From a virus (taxonomy: Duplodnaviria > Heunggongvirae > Uroviricota > Caudoviricetes), in the IMG/VR virus record IMGVR_UViG_2711768014_000011: a stretch of 43,933 nucleotides of DNA; one strand, given 5' to 3'. The stretch's first letter is position 1. Each line of letters opens with the position of its first letter. The position numbers and the translations under genes were made by a program. This document shows positions 1-42,381 of this stretch, one piece after another. The notes under the pieces are model-generated. The model saw only the letters and a program-made list of their open reading frames with translations. It was not told the DNA's origin and searched no databases.

Positions 1-3000
1 ATACGCTATACCGTTAAAAATAATGGGCGGAATAATAATCTGGCGGTCAAAGTTATGATCATCGCTGATGGTGACTGTAACCGTACCGTCTGGTGTTTCC
101 GTGTTACCCCACGTACCGACTTTTTTCGGGAAGGCTTTTGATACAGCTTTAACGAAATCCCCTCTGACCTGGGTCGCCTCCAGCATGCCCTTAATCGTAC
201 AGTTCTGGTTAATCGTGACATTGTTGAGCGTTCCTGAGTTCGCATTCACACTACCACTGATATCCGCATTTTTAGCGGTCAGCTTTCCGTCTGATGTCAG
301 GGAAAATACCGGAGGACTGCCACCGCTGGTAATGGCGGGGGCTGTCAGGCGCTTCAGGAACACGTCGTTCATGAATATCTGGTTGCCCTGCGCCACAAAC
401 ATCGGCGTTTCATTCCCGTTTGCCGGGTCAATAAACGCGATACGGTTAGCGGCAACCAGAAACTGGCTCAGTTTGCCTTCCTCCGTGTCCTCCATGCTGA
501 GGCCAATACCCGCGACATAATGTTTGCCGTCTTTGGTCTGCTCAATTTTGACGCCCCACATCGCATTCCATTTATCGTTAGCGTCCTTCCACTCTTTCGA
601 AAACTCATCCAGTCTGCTGGCGTTATCCTCCGTCAGATCAACTTTTTCCAGCAGCTCTTTACCGAGATGGGATTCGGTTATCTTGCCTTTGAAAAAATCC
701 AGGTAACCTTCCGCATCATCGCTCGCCCGACCGACGGCCTCCACGAATGCCGATTTGCCAACGGTGTTCACACTGCGGATATAAAAGTAATAATCATGGC
801 CCGGTTTGATATTGATACTGGCGGCTATCCAGTACAGCCCCGCGCCAAGGTAGCGGGCTGTGGTTTCAACCTGCCTGATATCGGTAATCCGCGTTTCCGA
901 GAACCAGAACTCAAACTGTACCGTCGGATCATAAACCGCAAGATGCGGCGTGGCAGTTATCTGAAAATAGCCCGGCGTCAGCTCAATCCGCGACGGTGCT
1001 ACCGGTGCGGCAATCCTGAACGATACCGACGCCGGATCGCCCTGCTGTCCCCAGGCATTTACCGCCCGGACTGTCAGCGTGTACCGTCCCAGCGCCAGTT
1101 GCGTGAAGCGGTATGTGGTTTCCGTCGTCCGGGCCGTGCTGACCAGCCGCTCACTGCCGTCATCCGCTGCCACGGTCAGGCGAAGCATAAAGCTCACCCC
1201 CTTCACCACCTTCGGCGTGTCCCAGCGCGCCAGCACCTGATATTCCCCGCTGTCTGCGGTGACTTCGGCAGTCAGGTGCTGCACCGCTGGCGGCGTGACA
1301 CCATTCACCGTGCCGCTCTGGTCGCCGTCAAAGTGCGCCCCGTTATCCACGATGGCTTCTTTTTCCGGTACATGCTGCACGGCAGTGATGGCATACGTGC
1401 CGTCATCGTTCTCACGGATACTCACACAGCGGAACAGGCGCTGGCGCAACGTCGGCAGCTTCAGCCCCCACACGCTGTATTCAGCAACGCCGTCAGGAAC
1501 ACGGCTCACTTTCACCTTCACGCCGTCGGTGACGGACTGAACCTCCACGCTGACCGGATTGCCACTTCCGTCAACCAGGCTTATCAGCATGGTACCGGAG
1601 GATGGCAGCGTGATTTCACGGTCGAGCGTCAGCGTCCGGGTCTGGCTGTTTACCGCCAGCACGCGCCCGCCGATGCTGATACCCGCATAGTCATCATCAC
1701 AGATTTCAATGACATCGCCCGGCACATGGCGAAGCCCTTCTGCGCCCACGCTGAAGTCCACGGTCTGCGTTTCCAGCAGTTCTGTTTTAATCAGCCACAG
1801 CCCGGCGCGGTGTGCCTGCCCCCGGCTGGTACAGCCAAAAGCATCCATCTTCGTGACGTTACGACCGTAACGGGCAATGGCCTGCGTATCCTCCACAAGC
1901 TCTGTCGCCGTCTCCCAGCCGTTATCCGGGTCAATCCAGTTCACCTCAACGGCATTATGGCGGTCNNNNNNNNNNNNNNNNNNNNNNNNNNNNNNNNNNN
2001 NNNNNNNNNNNNNNNNNNNNNNNNNNNNNNNNNNNNNNNNNNNNNNNNNNNNNNNNNNNNNNNNNNNNNNNNNNNNNNNNNNNNNNNNNNNNNNNNNNNN
2101 NNNNNNNNNNNNNNNNNNNNNNNNNNNNNNNNNNNNNNNNNNNNNNNNNNNNNNNNNNNNNNNNNNNNNNNNNNNNNNNNNNNNNNNNNNNNNNNNNNNN
2201 NNNNNNNNNNNNNNNNNNNNNNNNNNNNNNNNNNNNNNNNNNNNNNNNNNNNNNNNNNNNNNNACACCAGGCCATGTTGTTGCTGTATGCTGGTTTTAAC
2301 GTTCCGTCCCAGATACCGCTGTATTGTCGCGTCTGCGGGTTATAGTTCGACGGCACCTGCAGAATGCGCCCGCGAAGATGATAATTACGACTCACCTGCT
2401 GGCTGCCGAACTGCTCCGAGTCCACCTGTACGCCGACCAGTGCAGTGTTCGGGTAGCACTGTTTCACATCGATGATTTCGGTGTATGACGACCAGAGCGT
2501 TTTGTTCTGCAGCTGGTCTGTGGTGCTGTCCGGTGTCATCCTGCGCATCCGGATACTGAACGGGCGCGGAGGCAGGTTATCCACCACCACCGAGACCAGA
2601 TACTGCGAGGTGGTTTTGCCCTTAATGGTGATGTCTTTTTCCGTCACCCAGCCACCGTTACGCTGTATCTGAACCAGCAGGCGGACTTCCGACGGATTCC
2701 TGTCTCCCTTTGAGGTGGTTTCCACCAGTGCCTGTACACCGAAGGTAAAGCGCAGACGGTCGATGTTTGCCGACGTGATGGTCCGGGTGATCGGCGTGTC
2801 ATATTTCACTTCCGTACCCAGCACCGTCTCGGAGCCGGAGGATTCAAACCCCTCCGGCGGTGACTGCTCCTGCTCACCTGCCCGGAACACCACCGTGACG
2901 CCGGAGATGTTGGTATTCCCCTCATTGTCCAGCACCGGCGTACTGTTCAGCAGCACGCTTTTTAATCCATCCACCGGACCTTCAACCGGCCCTTCACTGA

Positions 3001-3148: not shown

Positions 3149-3854
3149 TCAGCGACCAATCACCACAACCTGACCACCATCCCCTTCGTCTGCCGTGCTG
3201 ATCTCCTGAGAAACCACACGTGACCCCACGCGCATTTCCCCGTACAGNNNNNNNNNNNNNNNNNNNNNNNNNNNNNNNNNNNNNNNNNNNNNNNNNNNNN
3301 NNNNNNNNNNNNNNNNNNNNNNNNNNNNNNNNNNNNNNNNNNNNNNNNNNNNNNNNNNNNNNNNNNNNNNNNNNNNNNNNNNNNNNNNNNNNNNNNNNNN
3401 NNNNNNNNNNNNNNNNNNNNNNNNNNNNNNNNNNNNNNNNNNNNNNNNNNNNNNNNNNNNNNNNNNNNNNNNNNNNNNNNNNNNNNNNNNNNNNNNNNNN
3501 NNNNNNNNNNNNNNNNNNNNNNNNNNNNNNNNNNNNNNNNNNNNAAAACACACCGCCACTTTTGGCACCCGCCAGACGCGGAACGATGTGGATCACGGCA
3601 CCATTTGCCAGCGGTTCATTAAGACGGGCAGATAATTCATTTTCGCCTGCATCACGCCCGGCAATGCGCACCTGATACCAGCCGTCGCTCAGTTTCTGAC
3701 GAAATGCCGGGAGCTGTGTGGCCAGTGCCCGGATGGCTTCGGCCCCCGTTTTCACACGAAGGTCGATGCGGCGGCCAAATCGCTGCAAATCCCCGTAAAG
3801 GCAGATGCGTGCCATGCCCGGTGACGCCAGAGGGAGTGTGTGCGTCGCTGCCAT
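3149..3854 (-). CDS. I: Tail assembly protein I (lambda gpI-like); N block 3248-3544 inside
   Basis: N-terminus MAATHTLPLASPGMARICLYGDLQRFGRR and C-terminus LYGEMRVGSRVVSQEISTADEGDGGQVVVIGR match recalled lambda I; the frame changes across the N run. Confidence 0.8.
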
Positions 3855-4714
3855 TTGTCGGTATACCTCTCTCGTTTGCTCAGTTGTTCAGGAATATGGT
3901 GCAGCAGCTCGCCGTCACCACAGTAAATGGCGGCATGATTCGGCACCGATGAACCAAAACAGCACAGCAGCACATCGCCCGGCTGCGCCGTTGACAACGG
4001 CACCTGATACAGCCCTGTAGCCTCCAGATTATCCAGATAGAGATTCTGACCATTACGCCACCAGTCGTCCTCACGATGAAAATCTGGCATCTCAATTCCC
4101 GCCAGATGGTAAGCGTCCCGGAACAGCGTGTAACAGTCCGTCACCCCGTGCTCAAAGCGCCGCCCGGTGAGATGCGGCACACAGCGGAACTTGTGAATCG
4201 CCCCGCGGCAGACCAGCCACCACGACAAATCACTCTGCACCTGCAGCCGCCGGTCGGCCTCACTCAGCCAGGGCAGACCACCGGGGTGGCTGTGGACCAG
4301 CGCCACAATCTCACCCTGCATCTCTGCCTNNNNNNNNNNNNNNNNNNNNNNNNNNNNNNNNNNNNNNNNNNNNNNNNNNNNNNNNNNNNNNNNNNNNNNN
4401 NNNNNNNNNNNNNNNNNNNNNNNNNNNNNNNNNNNNNNNNNNNNNNNNNNNNNNNNNNNNNNNNNNNNNNNNNNNNNNNNNNNNNNNNNNNNNNNNNNNN
4501 NNNNNNNNNNNNNNNNNNNNNNNNNNNNNNNNNNNNNNNNNNNNNNNNNNNNNNNNNNNNNNNNNNNNNTCCGGAAATACTCCTCCGGCTCACCGGAAAT
4601 ATTCACGCAGGGAAAATATCTTTCCCCCTCCGGTGTTCTCACCACGAAGCCGCACGACTCCGCTGGCGCACATCGCCGGGCGTGCGCCAGAATCGCTGAT
4701 TCTGTCTGTGTCAT
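3752..4714 (-). CDS. K: Tail assembly protein K (JAB/MPN metalloprotease-like HSHPGG motif plus NlpC/P60-like C-terminus); N block 4328-4569 inside
   Basis: MTQTESAILAHARRCAPAESCGFVV and EIVALVHSHPGGLPWLSEADR motifs; 103-nt overlap with I start as in lambda. Confidence 0.8.
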   Translation of the reverse strand: MTQTESAILAHARRCAPAESCGFVVRTPEGERYFPCVNISGEPEEYFRXXXXXXXXXXXXXXXXXXXXXXXXXXXXXXXXXXXXXXXXXXXXXXXXXXXXXXXXXXXXXXXXXXXXXXXXXXXXXXXXXAEMQGEIVALVHSHPGGLPWLSEADRRLQVQSDLSWWLVCRGAIHKFRCVPHLTGRRFEHGVTDCYTLFRDAYHLAGIEMPDFHREDDWWRNGQNLYLDNLEATGLYQVPLSTAQPGDVLLCCFGSSVPNHAAIYCGDGELLHHIPEQLSKRERYTDKWQRRTHSLWRHRAWHASAFTGICSDLAAASTFV

Positions 4715-23815: not shown

Positions 23816-24315
23816 TGCTGACCCCACAAACAGATTTCACGCTCAATCTCACGACGAGTCATGAGACCTTTCCATTGCTTACCGCCAGCATATGTCCAGC
23901 GACGTAGCTGATCACATGCGCCTTTGATATCGCCCTGGTTTATTTTNNNNNNNNNNNNNNNNNNNNNNNNNNNNNNNNNNNNNNNNNNNNNNNNNNNNNN
24001 NNNNNNNNNNNNNNNNNNNNNNNNNNNNNNNNNNNNNNNNNNNNNNNNNNNNNNNNNNNNNNNNNNNNNNNNNNNNNNNNNNNNNNNNNNNNNNNNNNNN
24101 NNNNNNNNNNNNNNNNNNNNNNNNNNNNNNNNNNNNNNNNNNNNNNNNNNNNNNNNNNNNNNNNNNNNNNNNNNNNNNNNNNNNNNNNNNNNNNNNNNNN
24201 NNNNNNNNNNNNCCAGACCATCGTTACCACTTGGGCCAGTGATTAACACTGATGCTATAGCAATTGCTCCGCCACCAATAGCAGCAGCAACGACTTTTCG
24301 TAATGATGGAGGCAT
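23812..24315 (-). CDS. SAR endolysin (T4-lysozyme-type, RrrD-like); N block 23947-24212 inside
   Basis: N-terminal signal-anchor-release segment [34 protein letters not shown] and C-terminus [37 protein letters not shown]; start overlaps the holin stop (ATGA). Confidence 0.85.
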
Positions 24316-25177: not shown

Positions 25178-25327
25178 TTCTTGCTCCTCAATCCATTAAA
25201 ATCTCAGCAATAGTAGTTGTTACGTCCGCCACTGGCTCAGAGCTGACTATCCGCTAAATTTAGCTCAGTGCCGTAGCTGTGTCAGAACAAACCTAAGCCG
25301 AAACCGTTTATTACAAAACAATAAATA

Positions 25328-25756: not shown

Positions 25757-26344
25757 TTTTCCTCACATATGTCATATAGTAAAGGATTATATATACCGTT
25801 GTTTTGGACGCTCAAACAGCGAATCAGATCAAATAAAACGCACATTTGTTAACATTTACACAAAGTCTGCGTGGGATATTCTGAAAGAATATCCATAATG
25901 TGGAGAGAATCTATTGAAGTGCATGGTGCCGGGTGCCTCCCGGTGAACAAAATGTTCGTGATACCTGTCGGCGACAGAAAAGGTTAATGGTATCACCCCA
26001 CCGCACAGGGGGATTCACCATGCAGGAGTTTTCTTAGCAAACTCACTGCGCGCCCGGCAACTCCCAACCACATAAAATGCGGAGTTTGTGGCATTTATGC
26101 ATATAACTCGCAGGAATTATCTTAAAAAACTGATGTCGATCCGGATTAAAAAGAAGCAGGTCATCATCAGATGACTGGAAAAAAGGAAAACAAAAAATAC
26201 TCATCATACAGTTTTGATTGCAGGGATGAGCCTGCTATGCACAATATGCAGAATATAAGCAAGATAAAAATATGCAGGCATATTATTTCGGATCTTGTTA
26301 TTAACACAACCTTTTTAATAATCATTTGGCATACAATAAACCAG

Positions 26345-28229: not shown

Positions 28230-28509
28230 TTCTCAATCTCTCGATGGCGCAGCGCAGCAGATGCCAGTTGTTCAGGCTGACGAATAAAGTATAAATAAAC
28301 TGGCTATGGTGTAAAGCCCCACATAGCATGAACAAACACTACATATCAAATAGCTGGTACAAGGATAGAAATACGACACTTATTATTAAAAACGATTAGA
28401 TAAATTACATTTTAATGTTATGCAAAAGTTCTTTTTTATCATAACATTTCAATAAAAGCATTACAGATGCAATCATCCCGTCATCATCAATTATTTAAGG
28501 TGGTTAAAC

Positions 28510-28596
28510 ATGGAAAATAACAAGTTCGCACATCTCGCTCCTTTTTTATCCGTAATCCTTTTCGCTTGTTGTTTTATATGGGCATTATTTTTATAA
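28510..28596 (+). CDS. Candidate small hydrophobic peptide (28 aa)
   Basis: ATG at 28510 with SD AAGGTGG 6 nt upstream; MENNKFAHLAPFLSVILFACCFIWALFL has a single predicted transmembrane helix; lies in an AT-rich cargo island. Confidence 0.35.
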   Translation: MENNKFAHLAPFLSVILFACCFIWALFL

Positions 28597-28987
28597 AGTA
28601 GCCACATGATAAGTTGCTGGAATCATATTTCCCACTCAAGTCATTAACATTTGATAAGATATATCTAAAAGGACGCCTTTACATTATTTATGCGTATATA
28701 ATTTATTTATATACACAGTAAAGGTATCCTGGGAAAATATTTATCGTTAAAAAATACATCATAAATAATTAAGCTGAAATTTCAGAACACAACTAATACA
28801 CACAATAAGGTTCAGTAACAGTAATCTATGTGGACTACATCGAGATTTTTTGATTAAACTTTAATAACTTATTCCTAACACACAGAATGCATAAACTAAA
28901 AGTAAAACAAATAGTTATACGAAAAACAACCATATTTATTCTATCTTCTCCTCTAATCAACATATCAATTATGTGTTTCATAACAGC

Positions 28988-29027
28988 TTGACATAACCCT
29001 CCAAAAGATGCATTTTTAATGCATGTT
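28988..29027 (+). promoter_or_regulatory. Candidate promoter (-35 TTGACA at 28988-28993) overlapped by an NsrR-type 11-1-11 inverted repeat (29005-29027)
   Basis: AAGATGCATTT-T-TAATGCATGTT; the left half-site equals the recalled NsrR consensus half AAGATGCATTT, the right half matches its reverse complement at 9 of 11; sits 16 nt upstream of the yeaR-like start. Confidence 0.45.
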
Positions 29028-29818: not shown

Positions 29819-30001
29819 CAGCACTTCCTTAAATGCTCTAAGTCAGAAACAAGCCAACATTTTAGTCCGCTTTGAGCGATCTGCAGACATTGCTAGCAGC
29901 CTTCTGTGTGAATTCTCAGGGAGCAGGTCGGCATAGCATCACGTTGAGGCTCTTACCCTACTTGTTCACACCAACCCTAACTCCACAGACTGATTCATAA
30001 A

Positions 30002-31003
30002 TTAGTAATCTGCGTGTTTCGCACTTTTCAGAAATGCTTTCATATTTTCATTAGGTCGCTCAATTTCGAAGTTACTTCCATATAACTCTTGTAATTTTGG
30101 CCATAACTTACTTAATAACCCTCTCCTGCGATAAAATGGATGTATCCAAACGGTAGATAGGTACGGAGAATTTGCATTTGAATTGTTTATTGTGACCAGC
30201 CCAACTAAACATTGTCGATAACCACTATTATCCATTGATTGTATTTCTTCGACGAATGGATACGCGATTACATCAGTCCAACCATGATCGGTTGTATCCC
30301 ATTGCATTCCGTCATGACATTCCTTCGACTGATAGCGGCGTAAAGCTACACACGCGAGCTTTTGCCAATCTGGAGAATTAATTGTGATCTCTTCATCGTA
30401 TGACGCGCCTATTGGAGCGGGTATTGGTCTGATTAATCCAGCATGGCATTCATCATAGAACTTCATGTTTCCCTCAGAAACGTTGTGTACGTTGGGTTGC
30501 TCCATGTGTGCGCCATTCAAAAATAGCTCTGATAGTAGTGTATCTACACTGTAATCTTTATTGATTATTGTCGGCTTAGAGTTTTTCTTATTAAGGCCGC
30601 GAGTAACGATTTTTTGATCAATGTTAACAACATGGAATAATCCGTCGGGGAGGCTAGCGAACCACGATGGGGCATCGGACCAGAATAGCATGCCTTTTGT
30701 ACTTCTTAAGAGTTTAATTAAGTTAATACAAGCTTCTTCACTAGTCTTGCCGTTGATGCGAAGTATGTTAGGACTAAAGTAATATTCATCCATATCAGGG
30801 AATGCAGCTTCGCAAAACTCCTGTACATAATTTAGCACCTGGATTCTACAGAGATCATCATAGCTGGTAATAACTAAGGGGGTATCTTCATTACTATTAT
30901 GATTATCAATAATGCAATCTATAGCGAGACTTACTGCTTTGCGTATCACTTCAGTTGAATCTAACGACTCTAAAAATTTTGTCTTTCGTGTGCGAATATC
31001 CAT
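30002..31003 (-). CDS. Cargo cassette protein B: unknown function, C-terminal GNAT-acetyltransferase-like motif
   Basis: 333 aa; AT-rich; start 15 nt after protein A's stop; C-terminal LVGLVTI...YLSTVWIHPFYRRRGLLSKLW resembles GNAT motif A (V-x-P-x-Y-R-x-x-G). Confidence 0.75.
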   Translation of the reverse strand: MDIRTRKTKFLESLDSTEVIRKAVSLAIDCIIDNHNSNEDTPLVITSYDDLCRIQVLNYVQEFCEAAFPDMDEYYFSPNILRINGKTSEEACINLIKLLRSTKGMLFWSDAPSWFASLPDGLFHVVNIDQKIVTRGLNKKNSKPTIINKDYSVDTLLSELFLNGAHMEQPNVHNVSEGNMKFYDECHAGLIRPIPAPIGASYDEEITINSPDWQKLACVALRRYQSKECHDGMQWDTTDHGWTDVIAYPFVEEIQSMDNSGYRQCLVGLVTINNSNANSPYLSTVWIHPFYRRRGLLSKLWPKLQELYGSNFEIERPNENMKAFLKSAKHADY

Positions 31004-31018
31004 GTATGACCTGCGCTA

Positions 31019-32041
31019 TTAAAATTCATGAATGAACGGTTTGTCATCTGGTTGCAAAATGGTGGTTTTATTCGTTGCTACATTTAAACTGTTGTAGAGC
31101 ATAATTGCCAGGTTCGATGCATTTTCAATCAGCGTTTCAAGATCCTGGTCTGTAATCACTACGAGGTTCCCTTCTTTATCCTTTCCACCACGATGCACTA
31201 AGTGATTTCGATTGAGGGTTGCCAATTCAATAGCTTCTATCGGACAGTCTTTTTGTACTTTTATATCGAATGTAGCTTCATAGCGGTCGATTACCTTTTT
31301 AGTGCTATGCCAGCTTGCACTGATCAAGTGTTCCTTGATTGACCTGATTAGCTCTCCCCTAATTTTCTCGATGGGTTCACCCTTGAAAGGCAACGCAGCA
31401 ATATCTTTGCTTACTTTAAATTCAGTCTTACCTTTTTCTATACAATTGGCTATGTAGACATCATCTTTCTCTATAGAATTAATGAATAGCTCAACATAAA
31501 GCGTTTCCAAAGCTGTAATAACATTCGTGTAGAGCAAACTAAGCAAGTGGTTTTTTTGCTGTTGTTCAGTTTTATCTTTTGCAAGTTTTTTTATTTTATC
31601 GATATTATCAATGAATTTTAAATACGGATTACCGGAAGACGTTACAGCGTCGTAGATATCATCATCGTACCAATCATCTATATTATTTGAGTTTCCAGAC
31701 CAGTCAAAACATTGTGTTTGTAATTCATCTACTAATTCCTCAATATACTCAGATTTAACATATTGACCGAAGATGGATTGTAGTTCTTCGCTCGCATCAT
31801 ACGGCCCGCCATATATGTAAGCATAGCCACCTTCTCTACTTTCATACGGACAAGCATTTGCCGGATCTTCAAAGTTTTCAAAGAACCAGTTTTTCATTAC
31901 TTCGAGTTGATCTTTTTTGCTTATGTATTTTAAAGATTTTAGTGGAACTTTCTTTCCATTAACCTCGAAAACAATTTTCACGATGTAACGCTCCCTTGTA
32001 TCAATTGCGCAACTATTATACCACAGCGAAATACAGGGCAT
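31019..32041 (-). CDS. Cargo cassette protein A: unknown function, C-terminal HEPN-like Rx4H motif
   Basis: 340 aa from ATG 32041 (SD AAGGAGG 6 nt upstream); alternative GTG start at 31981 behind an extended -10; AT-rich; C-terminal ELATLNRNHLVHRGG contains R-N-x3-H. Confidence 0.75.
   Translation of the reverse strand: MPCISLWYNSCAIDTRERYIVKIVFEVNGKKVPLKSLKYISKKDQLEVMKNWFFENFEDPANACPYESREGGYAYIYGGPYDASEELQSIFGQYVKSEYIEELVDELQTQCFDWSGNSNNIDDWYDDDIYDAVTSSGNPYLKFIDNIDKIKKLAKDKTEQQQKNHLLSLLYTNVITALETLYVELFINSIEKDDVYIANCIEKGKTEFKVSKDIAALPFKGEPIEKIRGELIRSIKEHLISASWHSTKKVIDRYEATFDIKVQKDCPIEAIELATLNRNHLVHRGGKDKEGNLVVITDQDLETLIENASNLAIMLYNSLNVATNKTTILQPDDKPFIHEF
32015..32023 (-). promoter_or_regulatory. 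Candidate extended -10 (TGGTATAAT) inside the 5' end of the cassette A ORF
   Basis: Minus-strand TGGTATAAT lies 34 nt upstream of GTG 31981, which has SD AAGGGAG; a TTGACA hexamer also occurs at 32137-32142 in the upstream gap but without a matching -10. Confidence 0.3.
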
Positions 32042-32179
32042 AACCTGCCTCCTTAAACTAACATACCATGAGCCAGCAATGTCCGCTATTGGCACAAAGC
32101 GGACAACCACGCTAGCTCTCCCCTGTGCCAGAAAAATGTCAATTTACATATGAACTAATGCTCTTTGATCTAGTAACGT

Positions 32180-33395: not shown

Positions 33396-34138
33396 TTACT
33401 TCTCAATTCCTGGCTGGACGACATTCGGACGCCAGCTCTCCCAGTTAAAATTCACCCATCGCCCGNNNNNNNNNNNNNNNNNNNNNNNNNNNNNNNNNNN
33501 NNNNNNNNNNNNNNNNNNNNNNNNNNNNNNNNNNNNNNNNNNNNNNNNNNNNNNNNNNNNNNNNNNNNNNNNNNNNNNNNNNNNNNNNNNNNNNNNNNNN
33601 NNNNNNNNNNNNNNNNNNNNNNNNNNNNNNNNNNNNNNNNNNNNNNNNNNNNNNNNNNNNNNNNNNNNNNNNNNNNNNNNNNNNNNNNNNNNNNNNNNNN
33701 NNNNNNNNNNNNNNNNNNNNNNNNNNNNNNNNNNNNNNNNNNNNNNNNNNNNNNNNNNNNNNNNNNNNNNNNNNNGATAGCTGCCGCTAAGTGGTTCTTC
33801 CCGGTACCAGGTTTTCCGCTGAACGCAAAATTTGTACACCCGGTCATCAGTTCATCAGCGATGGATTTCGCCTGACTCAACGCGTATCGCTGCGCTTCGT
33901 TCTGCACCTGGTAATTCGAAAACGAGCATTTGCGGTGCAATGGCTGGATGCCAGAGCGATTCAGAATTTTTTCCACCCGCAACTGACGATTCTGACGGTT
34001 GATCTCCTCACAACGTTTCTGGCCTTCGGAAAGTTGCCACTCGCGCCACTCCGCTACCGTCTTGAATGGCGCGGTTACATGTGACGGGGCCAGTCTGCGG
34101 ATACGTTCAAGAACGTCGCCTGTCGCAATATTTTTCAT
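33396..34138 (-). CDS. ydaV: DnaC-like replication ATPase YdaV (helicase loader); N block 33466-33775 inside, 3' end frame uncertain
   Basis: N-terminal 121 aa visible with Walker [17 protein letters not shown]; size with the masked block is about 246 aa, close to K-12 YdaV. Confidence 0.7.
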
Positions 34139-42192: not shown

Positions 42193-42381
42193 ATGTATAA
42201 AATTACCGCCACTATTGAAAAGGAAGGTGGCACTCCTACTAACTGGACAAGATATTCAAAATCTAAACTAACGAAATCAGAATGCGAAAAAATGCTCTCA
42301 GGTAAAAAAGAAGCAGGCGTTTCCAGAGAGCAGAAAGTAAAACTGATAAATTTTAATTGCGAGAAACTTCAGTCCTCGTGA
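42193..42381 (+). CDS. rcbA: RcbA (YdaC)
   Basis: MYKITATIEKEGGTPTNWTRYSKSKLTKSECEKMLSGKKEAGVSREQKVKLINFNCEKLQSS; SD GGAGGTG 3 nt upstream; between ralR and xis as in K-12; longer upstream starts are possible. Confidence 0.65.
   Translation: MYKITATIEKEGGTPTNWTRYSKSKLTKSECEKMLSGKKEAGVSREQKVKLINFNCEKLQSS

Follow-up and report, generated by a model that had tools for sequence, protein, structure and literature searches.

The HEPN–GNAT gene pair of a Rac-like Escherichia coli prophage matches the published anti-phage system DS-33 and lies in an inverted-repeat-bounded cargo cassette

What does the AT-rich gene pair in the variable slot of a Rac-like prophage do, and do its two genes act as one system? 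We address this question in a 43,933-nucleotide stretch of viral DNA (Caudoviricetes; IMG/VR record IMGVR_UViG_2711768014_000011), whose full length is called the window below. The two genes, A and B, lie co-directionally on the minus strand, are separated by a 15-nt gap (31004–31018) and have a GC fraction of 0.34–0.40, as against 0.45–0.51 in the neighbouring phage genes. An initial annotation, made from the letters alone, had described this arrangement correctly and had proposed an undescribed, two-gene defence or toxin module. Judged by sequence identity, the pair is the published anti-phage system DS-33, and the core finding is thus already known: A matches DS-33A at 320 of 320 residues and B matches DS-33B at 332 of 333, with the genes in the same order (A then B) and at the same spacing. 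The defence assignment stands; the module is neither undescribed nor, as the experiments below indicate, an obligate two-gene system. The main features are as follows (strand and basis with each).

31019–31981, minus strand: gene A, a 320-aa HEPN defence protein identical to DS-33A (WP_014639476.1; Table S8 of PMC13092281); start taken from homologues and RefSeq.
30002–31003, minus strand: gene B, 333 aa, a unique N-terminal domain followed by a GNAT-fold C-terminal domain; 332/333 identical to WP_000354965.1 (DS-33B).
29865–32104, no strand: mobile cargo cassette of 2240 bp, comprising an inverted-repeat (IR) end, promoter, A, B and a second IR end; delimited by the limits of homology.

DS-33 was reported in April 2026 in the DefensePredictor study (Science 2026; supplement working identifier "GNAT"; PMC13092281), in which the transcription unit WP_014639476.1 plus WP_000354965.1 is recorded as a validated system, defensive and replicated. 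The first of these accessions is also the RefSeq accession of gene A in E. coli FORC_081. Carried with its native promoter on a low-copy plasmid (Tables S6 and S7 of PMC13092281), DS-33 gave 2–6 logs of protection against phages T7, T3, Bas67 and Bas26. The protection values are log10, for two replicates in E. coli (Table S7 of PMC13092281):

Wild type: T7 3.8/2.6, T3 3.3/2.4, Bas67 4.0/2.0, Bas26 5.0/5.9, T5 0.8/0.1.
HEPN-gene deletion: T7 0.1/-0.3, T3 -0.5/0, Bas67 0/-0.2, Bas26 0.5/0.3, T5 0.5/0.1.
R258A: T7 0.8/0.5, T3 -0.3/0.3, Bas67 0.5/0, Bas26 0.7/0.4, T5 0.4/0.3.
GNAT-gene deletion: T7 4.8/4.3, T3 3.3/3.3, Bas67 4.0/3.3, Bas26 5.0/4.9, T5 1.7/0.5.

From these deletion and R258A data, the HEPN gene is needed for defence and suffices for it, the protein does not defend without its catalytic arginine, and the GNAT gene can be lost without loss of defence. 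The notion that A and B form an obligate two-component toxin or abortive-infection system in which both activities are needed (the interpretation first offered for this locus) is therefore largely refuted, and we consider it very improbable. Adjacency, a shared orientation and promoter, and two folds typical of toxin and defence proteins speak for it. Yet defence survives without the GNAT gene, DefensePredictor gave A log-odds of 9.45 and B only 1.08 at a cut-off of 4 (PMC13092281), the two families go together in one clade only, and no RHH, DUF1778 or MNT-type partner is present. In our reading, held with high confidence, the locus is instead a 2.24-kb self-expressed cargo cassette in a variable Rac-like prophage slot, in which A is a one-gene HEPN defence and B a separable accessory.

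Both genes are real rather than chance open reading frames (ORFs), as 121 homologue clusters for A and 66 for B, together with confident AlphaFold models (predicted local distance difference test, pLDDT, 87 and 90), attest. The extent of A required correction. Its homologues begin MKIVF..., which corresponds to the GTG at 31981 and a protein of 320 aa, and the RefSeq start in FORC_081 agrees; the 340-aa version from the ATG at 32041, as initially annotated, is probably too long by 20 codons, judging from these sequence comparisons. Divergent cassettes lack that ATG, which is placed upstream of the conserved -10 box, while position 32110 is the upper limit of the longest mechanically called ORF and nothing more. 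Of the two strong ribosome-binding sites once credited to the pair, the AAGGAGG is real but belongs to this non-conserved ATG; the GTG of A has AAGGGAG, and the start of B is preceded only by a weak AGG. The proposal of a promoter of the cassette's own fared better. An extended -10 element is present and is kept as TG(T/C)GGTA(T/C)AAT in divergent cassettes, including an Aeromonas copy and the B-only deletion derivatives L106 and L128, though a promoter consensus scan passed over it for want of a -35.

31991–31997, minus strand: ribosome-binding site of A, AAGGGAG, 9 nt before the GTG; read from the sequence.
32015–32023, minus strand: extended -10 promoter element TGgTATAAT (TGGTATAAT), about 35 nt upstream of the GTG of A; read from the sequence.
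31706–31906, minus strand: HEPN/RES-NTD1 domain of A, residues ~26–92, the most conserved part of the family; Pfam PF18870.
31058–31564, minus strand: HEPN domain of A, residues ~140–308.
31193–31210, minus strand: Rx4H catalytic motif R258-N-H-L-V-H263 of A; invariance and R258A (PMC13092281).

The terminal strings that had suggested a HEPN motif in A and a GNAT motif in B (ELATLNRNHLVHRGG and WIHPFYRRRGLLSKLW) are both present in the window. The R-N-x3-H string of A is indeed a HEPN motif: R258, H263 and R264 (the RNHLVHR string) are invariant in an alignment of 70 family members at 26–87% identity, as are W224, H225 and E159. HEPN_RES_NTD1 (PF18870) is matched by 64 of the 70 and HEPN_RiboL-PSP (PF18735) by 33 of the 70, clear homologues of A (phmmer E 1e-35 to 1e-53) bear both domains, and the AlphaFold model of A has the all-alpha HEPN helical-bundle fold. 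Other resources were less informative. Neither A nor B has an NCBIfam match or a PADLOC match at a meaningful score (a PADLOC search having been among the checks proposed at the outset); in PHROGs they match only the unknown-function families 17908 and 16994, and searches of PDB sequences with the two family profiles returned chance-level matches only. Among distant homologues of A, the N-terminal domain is 51% identical as against 29% for the HEPN domain, a pattern that fits recognition of a conserved ligand or target rather than of a fast-evolving phage protein.

These observations suggest how A might act. A, a HEPN protein that works without a partner and is transcribed from the extended -10 promoter within the cassette, would be inactive, presumably auto-inhibited, in uninfected cells; its conserved HEPN/RES-NTD1 domain—a module also found fused to RES toxins (PMC3710099)—would sense a cue of infection by T7, T3, Bas67 or Bas26, upon which its HEPN domains would pair or dimerise to build a composite Rx4H RNase site. 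The activated protein might then cut RNA needed for translation and so halt phage growth, probably by abortive infection. RNase activity and substrate, sensing by the N-terminal domain, auto-inhibition and abortive infection are all inferred. B would be co-transcribed with A and is not needed for DS-33 defence.

The closest functional parallel is HepS of the Salmonella prophage Gifsy-1 (PMC13043305), likewise a single HEPN protein with an Rx4-6H motif and no partner gene, encoded at the corresponding accessory position of a lambdoid prophage, with replication genes on one side and late-regulation genes on the other. HepS is constitutively expressed, auto-inhibited (as is presumed for A) and activated by a phage protein, and it cleaves tRNA anticodon loops (PMC13043305); we found no sequence homology between A and Gifsy-1 HepS. 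In domain architecture A equals the MAE_18760/RiboL-PSP HEPN plus HEPN/RES-NTD1 arrangement catalogued computationally in 2013 (PMC3710099), for which a role in conflict was predicted only; A itself scores under the cut-offs of both PF18735 and PF18870. A remote relative at the level of the HEPN domain is component B of PD-T4-2 (RiboL-PSP-HEPN; PMC9519451), to which the DefensePredictor authors obtained an HHblits probability of 96.1 over 55% of A (PMC13092281). PD-T4-2 is, however, a different two-gene system selected on phage T4, and no PADLOC HMM matches A at E <= 1. DS-33 also differs from HEPN-MNT modules: the neighbour of A has a GNAT fold, no MNT gene is adjacent, and A stands solo in most genomes.

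What, then, is B? It divides into an N-terminal domain of its own and a shortened GNAT fold.

30554–31003, minus strand: N-terminal alpha/beta domain of B, residues 1 to ~150, of no recognisable family in database and profile searches.
30014–30391, minus strand: GNAT-fold domain of B, residues ~205–330, ending after helix alpha4.
30119–30139, minus strand: GNAT motif-A region (coenzyme A pyrophosphate loop) P289-F-Y-R292-R-R-G295 of B; conservation over 54 sequences.

The AlphaFold model of B (pLDDT 90) has a GNAT alpha/beta fold, and the motif flagged in the initial annotation falls within it. In the 54-sequence family 29 residues are invariant, among them W286, H288, P289 and R292 around WIHPFYRRRG; G295 is kept in 41/54 only, so that of the residues singled out for a conservation check in the two proteins, R258, H263 and R292 proved invariant and G295 did not. 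Against the Q/R-x-x-G-x-G/A pattern of motif A, the last G/A position is K, L or R in B, and the model stops after helix alpha4 (residues 319–327) without further strands, lacking beta6–beta7. Given this partly canonical motif and the missing strands, B may be a pseudo-enzyme, as far as the model allows. The N-terminal domain has no Pfam, NCBIfam or PADLOC match, and a profile search of 1.84 billion representative proteins matched it only to its own family and fragments thereof. The same search returned stand-alone relatives of the GNAT domain of ~160 aa, on which Pfam and PHROGs scans were uninformative. On phage- or satellite-like contigs, three such relatives (L216 4001–4483, L218 2938–3420 and L219 4001–4474) each directly follow a large primase/helicase-type gene or overlap its end; these genes encode DUF3987, DUF3631 and an 802-aa protein.

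Type II GNAT toxins are proteins of ~160–180 aa paired with an RHH/DUF1778 antitoxin. B resembles such toxins (TacT, AtaT, ItaT, KacT) in its GNAT fold and its carriage on mobile elements. Unlike them, it has 333 aa, a unique N-terminal domain and no C-terminal GNAT strands, and no antitoxin-like ORF adjoins it here or at solo B loci, which sets it apart from type II GNAT-RHH pairs (TacAT/AtaRT).

The distribution of the two families bears directly on whether they belong together. The A family spans 355 loci in species-representative genomes (Proteobacteria, Acidobacteriota, Chloroflexota, Planctomycetota, cyanobacteria and others). Homologues of A at <=76% identity never have B. The neighbourhoods of the 78 more remote A loci examined all lack B, and any one neighbouring protein family turns up at three of these loci at most. 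The B family numbers only ~10 full-length clusters at 50% identity; its members at <=56% identity, and likewise three lineages at 86% identity, are solo, without A and without a recurrent partner, and an all-against-all BLASTP of the neighbours of the 78 A loci and 15 B-only loci yielded no conserved partner gene for either. Solo B homologues occur in an integrative and conjugative element (ICE) adjoining ParE/PaaA2, in a Shewanella island and in an integrase island that also carries Mrr, McrA-like and Fic genes. The A–B pair is limited to a single Enterobacterales/Aeromonas clade (A >=84%, B >=73% identity) with constant spacing, and within that clade it travels as a unit, other contexts sharing none of the window's flanking proteins.

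Four B-only lineages at 86–91% identity are deletion derivatives of the A–B pair, and their three distinct junctions (given as window positions), from at least three separate deletions, take away almost the whole of A yet all leave B intact, which implies that B is repeatedly kept after loss of A:

31080/32009: A-deletion junction, in L106 5817–7075 and L128 1422–2682, both of which visibly keep the -10 box.
31060/32048: A-deletion junction, in L107 5878–7188 and L224 8885–10121.
31214/–: A-deletion junction without a promoter match, in L160 7790–9185.

At the first two junctions the cassette's 5' region is joined to the last 40–80 nt of A and an intact B.

Two explanations of B have to be weighed against this background. 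The first is that B has an independent second function in the same cassette—its own defence specificity, counter-defence or a host-modifying acyltransferase activity—and shares only a promoter with A. This explanation, which we place slightly below an even chance, draws on the survival of B through the three A deletions, with the promoter fused upstream of B at 31080/32009 and 31060/32048; on the solo homologues beside ParE/PaaA2 and among Mrr, McrA-like and Fic genes; on the stand-alone GNAT-domain relatives directly after primase/helicase-like genes of phage-like elements; and on the 29 invariant residues, which argue for purifying selection. Its difficulties are that the HEPN-gene deletion strain was unprotected against the five re-tested phages (albeit with the variant B allele discussed below; PMC13092281), that PADLOC returns no match, and that a protein with a partly canonical motif A and no beta6–beta7 may be a pseudo-enzyme.

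The second explanation is that B modulates A, the co-transcribed GNAT-fold protein dampening or gating the HEPN nuclease (by acylating A or its trigger, or by binding A), so that the pair is a functional unit. The 15-nt spacer and single promoter are conserved through ~25% protein divergence, and the A–B unit has been carried into an Aeromonas mobilisable element and a bare chromosomal site. Moreover, deletion of B raised protection, as detailed below. Yet distant A homologues lack B, B outlasts A in three deletion lineages and occurs without it in every distant relative, and the B-deletion strain is viable and defended, so that B cannot be an essential antitoxin. The gains in protection are small, come from two replicates, could be polar or expression effects, and run the opposite way for Bas26 in replicate 2. 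We judge modulation of A unlikely, although the slight rise in protection and the conserved tight coupling leave room for a damper role. Overall, the evidence on B favours an independent or modulatory accessory role, and its retention without A speaks for an independent function.

Several observations weigh against our reading of A as a one-gene defence with a separable accessory. Deletion of B lifted protection against T7 by 1.0 and 1.7 logs in the two replicates; in replicate 2 it also added 1.3 logs against Bas67 and 0.9 log against T3, and given this B may not be neutral. The fixed 15-nt spacer is kept over 84–100% identity in A and 73–100% in B in differing contexts, which could mean a functional link. 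The DS-33B that was tested, an ECOR allele, has leucine at position 289, where the window has the consensus P289 (codon at window positions 30137–30139), which is found in 54/54 family members and in all 50 near-identical copies retrieved; because the substitution falls on an invariant residue, the published dispensability of B may reflect an already impaired allele. The Pfam scores of A fall under the curated cut-offs (PF18870 at E = 1.9e-4 and 22 bits, under the 27.4-bit cut-off; PF18735 without a match), its family placement coming from transitive homology and structure. Finally, the main text of PMC13092281, as far as it was searched, contains no RNase assay, substrate, trigger or multiplicity-of-infection experiment for DS-33, and the names "DS-33" and "GNAT" are absent there. 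Direct evidence supports the identity with DS-33, the defence and its dependence on A and R258 but not on B, the presence of HEPN and GNAT folds, and the solo distribution of both families.

Where does the cassette sit? The host element is a Rac-like E. coli prophage, integrated at ttcA, in which the pair separates the replication genes from those of late control. In the identical region of E. coli FORC_081, annotation places ydaU-like, DnaC-like, DUF1627 and DUF977 replication genes on one side of the pair and DUF1971/DUF1367/DUF1364/DUF1133 genes on the other; farther out, the identical stretch carries intR, xisR, ralR, recET, kilR, sieB and ydaT/ydaU in one direction and, in the other, lysis genes plus trkG. 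A and B are labelled "hypothetical protein" in that annotation. Both are absent from the K-12 Rac prophage, by annotation and by tblastn of the two proteins, ydaW being directly followed there by rzpR; the position suggested from the start, a variable slot after the replication genes that K-12 Rac leaves unfilled, is thereby confirmed. Among 5426 complete E. coli genomes the full cassette occurs in 205 and the flanks in 1735, a disparity that identifies the cassette as variable cargo. Homology to phages Evi and Tritos is limited to its flanks.

The ends of this cargo are sharply defined. The DNA shared with more than 10 unrelated contexts breaks off at 29864/29865 and 32104/32105, and terminal IRs lie just inside these limits:

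32075–32104, minus strand: upstream terminal IR, with the palindromic core GTCCGC-TTTGTGCCAATA-GCGGAC-ATTGCT.
29865–29894, plus strand: downstream terminal IR, a degenerate copy, GTCCGC-TTTGAGCGATCT-GCAGAC-ATTGCT.

Sites of the GTCCGC-N12-GCGGAC-ATTGCT type occur only twice in the 44-kb window, at the two cassette ends, compared with 0.03 expected. The repeats are ~30–45 nt long with two loop types ("TTTGTGCCA" and "TTTGAGCGA"), and adjacent cassettes are linked by a ~18-nt spacer resembling "CTTCAGCTCAG". The same repeats recur elsewhere (L002 3266–3295/4678–4707, L163 3150–3179/6477–6506, L177 4867–4896/5958–5987, as well as L175, L178, L184 and L194). There they enclose other cargos in the equivalent slot of related prophages: a small GNAT plus an XRE/cupin regulator in phage Evi, a three-gene 3HP system (PADLOC Hp1–3, E down to 5e-41), an AbiGi protein (E = 1e-41) and two further proteins with R-N-x3-H motifs. 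No recombinase was found inside the repeat-bounded cassettes, and no target-site duplication was obvious in 15 junctions, examined without an empty site for comparison.

Several identities for the repeats were considered and set aside. A high-copy miniature inverted-repeat transposable element or repetitive extragenic palindrome is ruled out, since the repeats have a median of one copy per E. coli genome and are unannotated. Stable RNA hairpins are unsupported (folding z = -1.2 and +0.9 in this copy, the downstream one no better than shuffled sequence), as are terminators, there being no T-run terminator at the cassette ends; inspection alone revealed no GTTRRRY/RYYYAAC cores of an integron attC, and Rfam found no RNA family on the cassette. 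No description of the repeat element was found in the literature searched, and literature searches on the protein accessions and on repeat-bounded cassettes returned nothing beyond the DefensePredictor supplement. In the searched text of PMC13092281, mechanism, trigger, cassette boundaries and the evolutionary separability of A and B are not described; relative to that text, what is new here is the L289 caveat, the retention of B after A deletions and the inverted-repeat cassette ends.

Taken together, these strands allow a tentative proposal, somewhat doubtful as a whole: that B has its own selected function, whether as damper or as separate defence or counter-defence, and that DS-33 is one of a family of promoter-carrying, IR-bounded defence cassettes which lambdoid prophages would exchange at their hotspots and which would now and then settle in bare chromosome. 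On this proposal the published test would have missed a function of B, because the L289 allele was cloned and only five phages were re-tested. Swapping could proceed via short-homology (RecET/Red-type) recombination or another recombinase.

Two further contexts of the whole cassette were recorded. In Aeromonas caviae CP025706 (L156 10212–11293) it lies on a relaxase- and H-NS-carrying element beside a SIR2 gene overlapping a cREC_REC gene, which looks like another defence-type pair. At L222 7904–10183 (on the same contig as L144) the A–B cassette stands by itself in a bacterial chromosome, with a LacI-family regulator/sugar-catabolism operon on one side, a LysR regulator/beta-lactamase gene on the other and no phage or mobile-element genes within 9 kb.

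Elsewhere in the window, positions 28250–29000, between the DUF1367 and DUF1971 genes, are very AT-rich (GC 0.29–0.33) and hold no ORF of >=100 aa; the identical FORC_081 region has no annotated gene there, and the comparable position in phage Evi holds a hok-family MokW gene. Rfam placed two small RNAs above their gathering scores: RalA, the antitoxin of the RalR/RalA type I toxin-antitoxin pair (42199–42377, minus strand, 225 bits), and STnc100 (25867–26053, minus strand, 87 bits). Near the latter, at 25224–25247, is a third, weaker palindrome of the form GTCCGC-N12-G(C/T)GAC (one mismatch). Five runs of masked N interrupt the window (1966–2263, 3248–3544, 4330–4569, 23947–24212 and 33466–33775); the last, a short way upstream of the cassette, breaks up the replication genes DnaC-like and DUF1627 and explains an apparent GC dip at 33.25–34.0 kb.

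While the core finding adds nothing new, a HEPN defence gene called from sequence alone was, in 2026, experimentally validated, and the analysis attaches a caveat to the published result, namely that the GNAT gene was judged dispensable with an allele mutated at an invariant residue. The separate mobility of the two genes points to A as a one-gene system with a highly conserved, portable, sensor-like N-terminal domain shared with RES toxins, and the repeat-bounded structure of the cassette may account for the exchange of defence cargos at this prophage hotspot.

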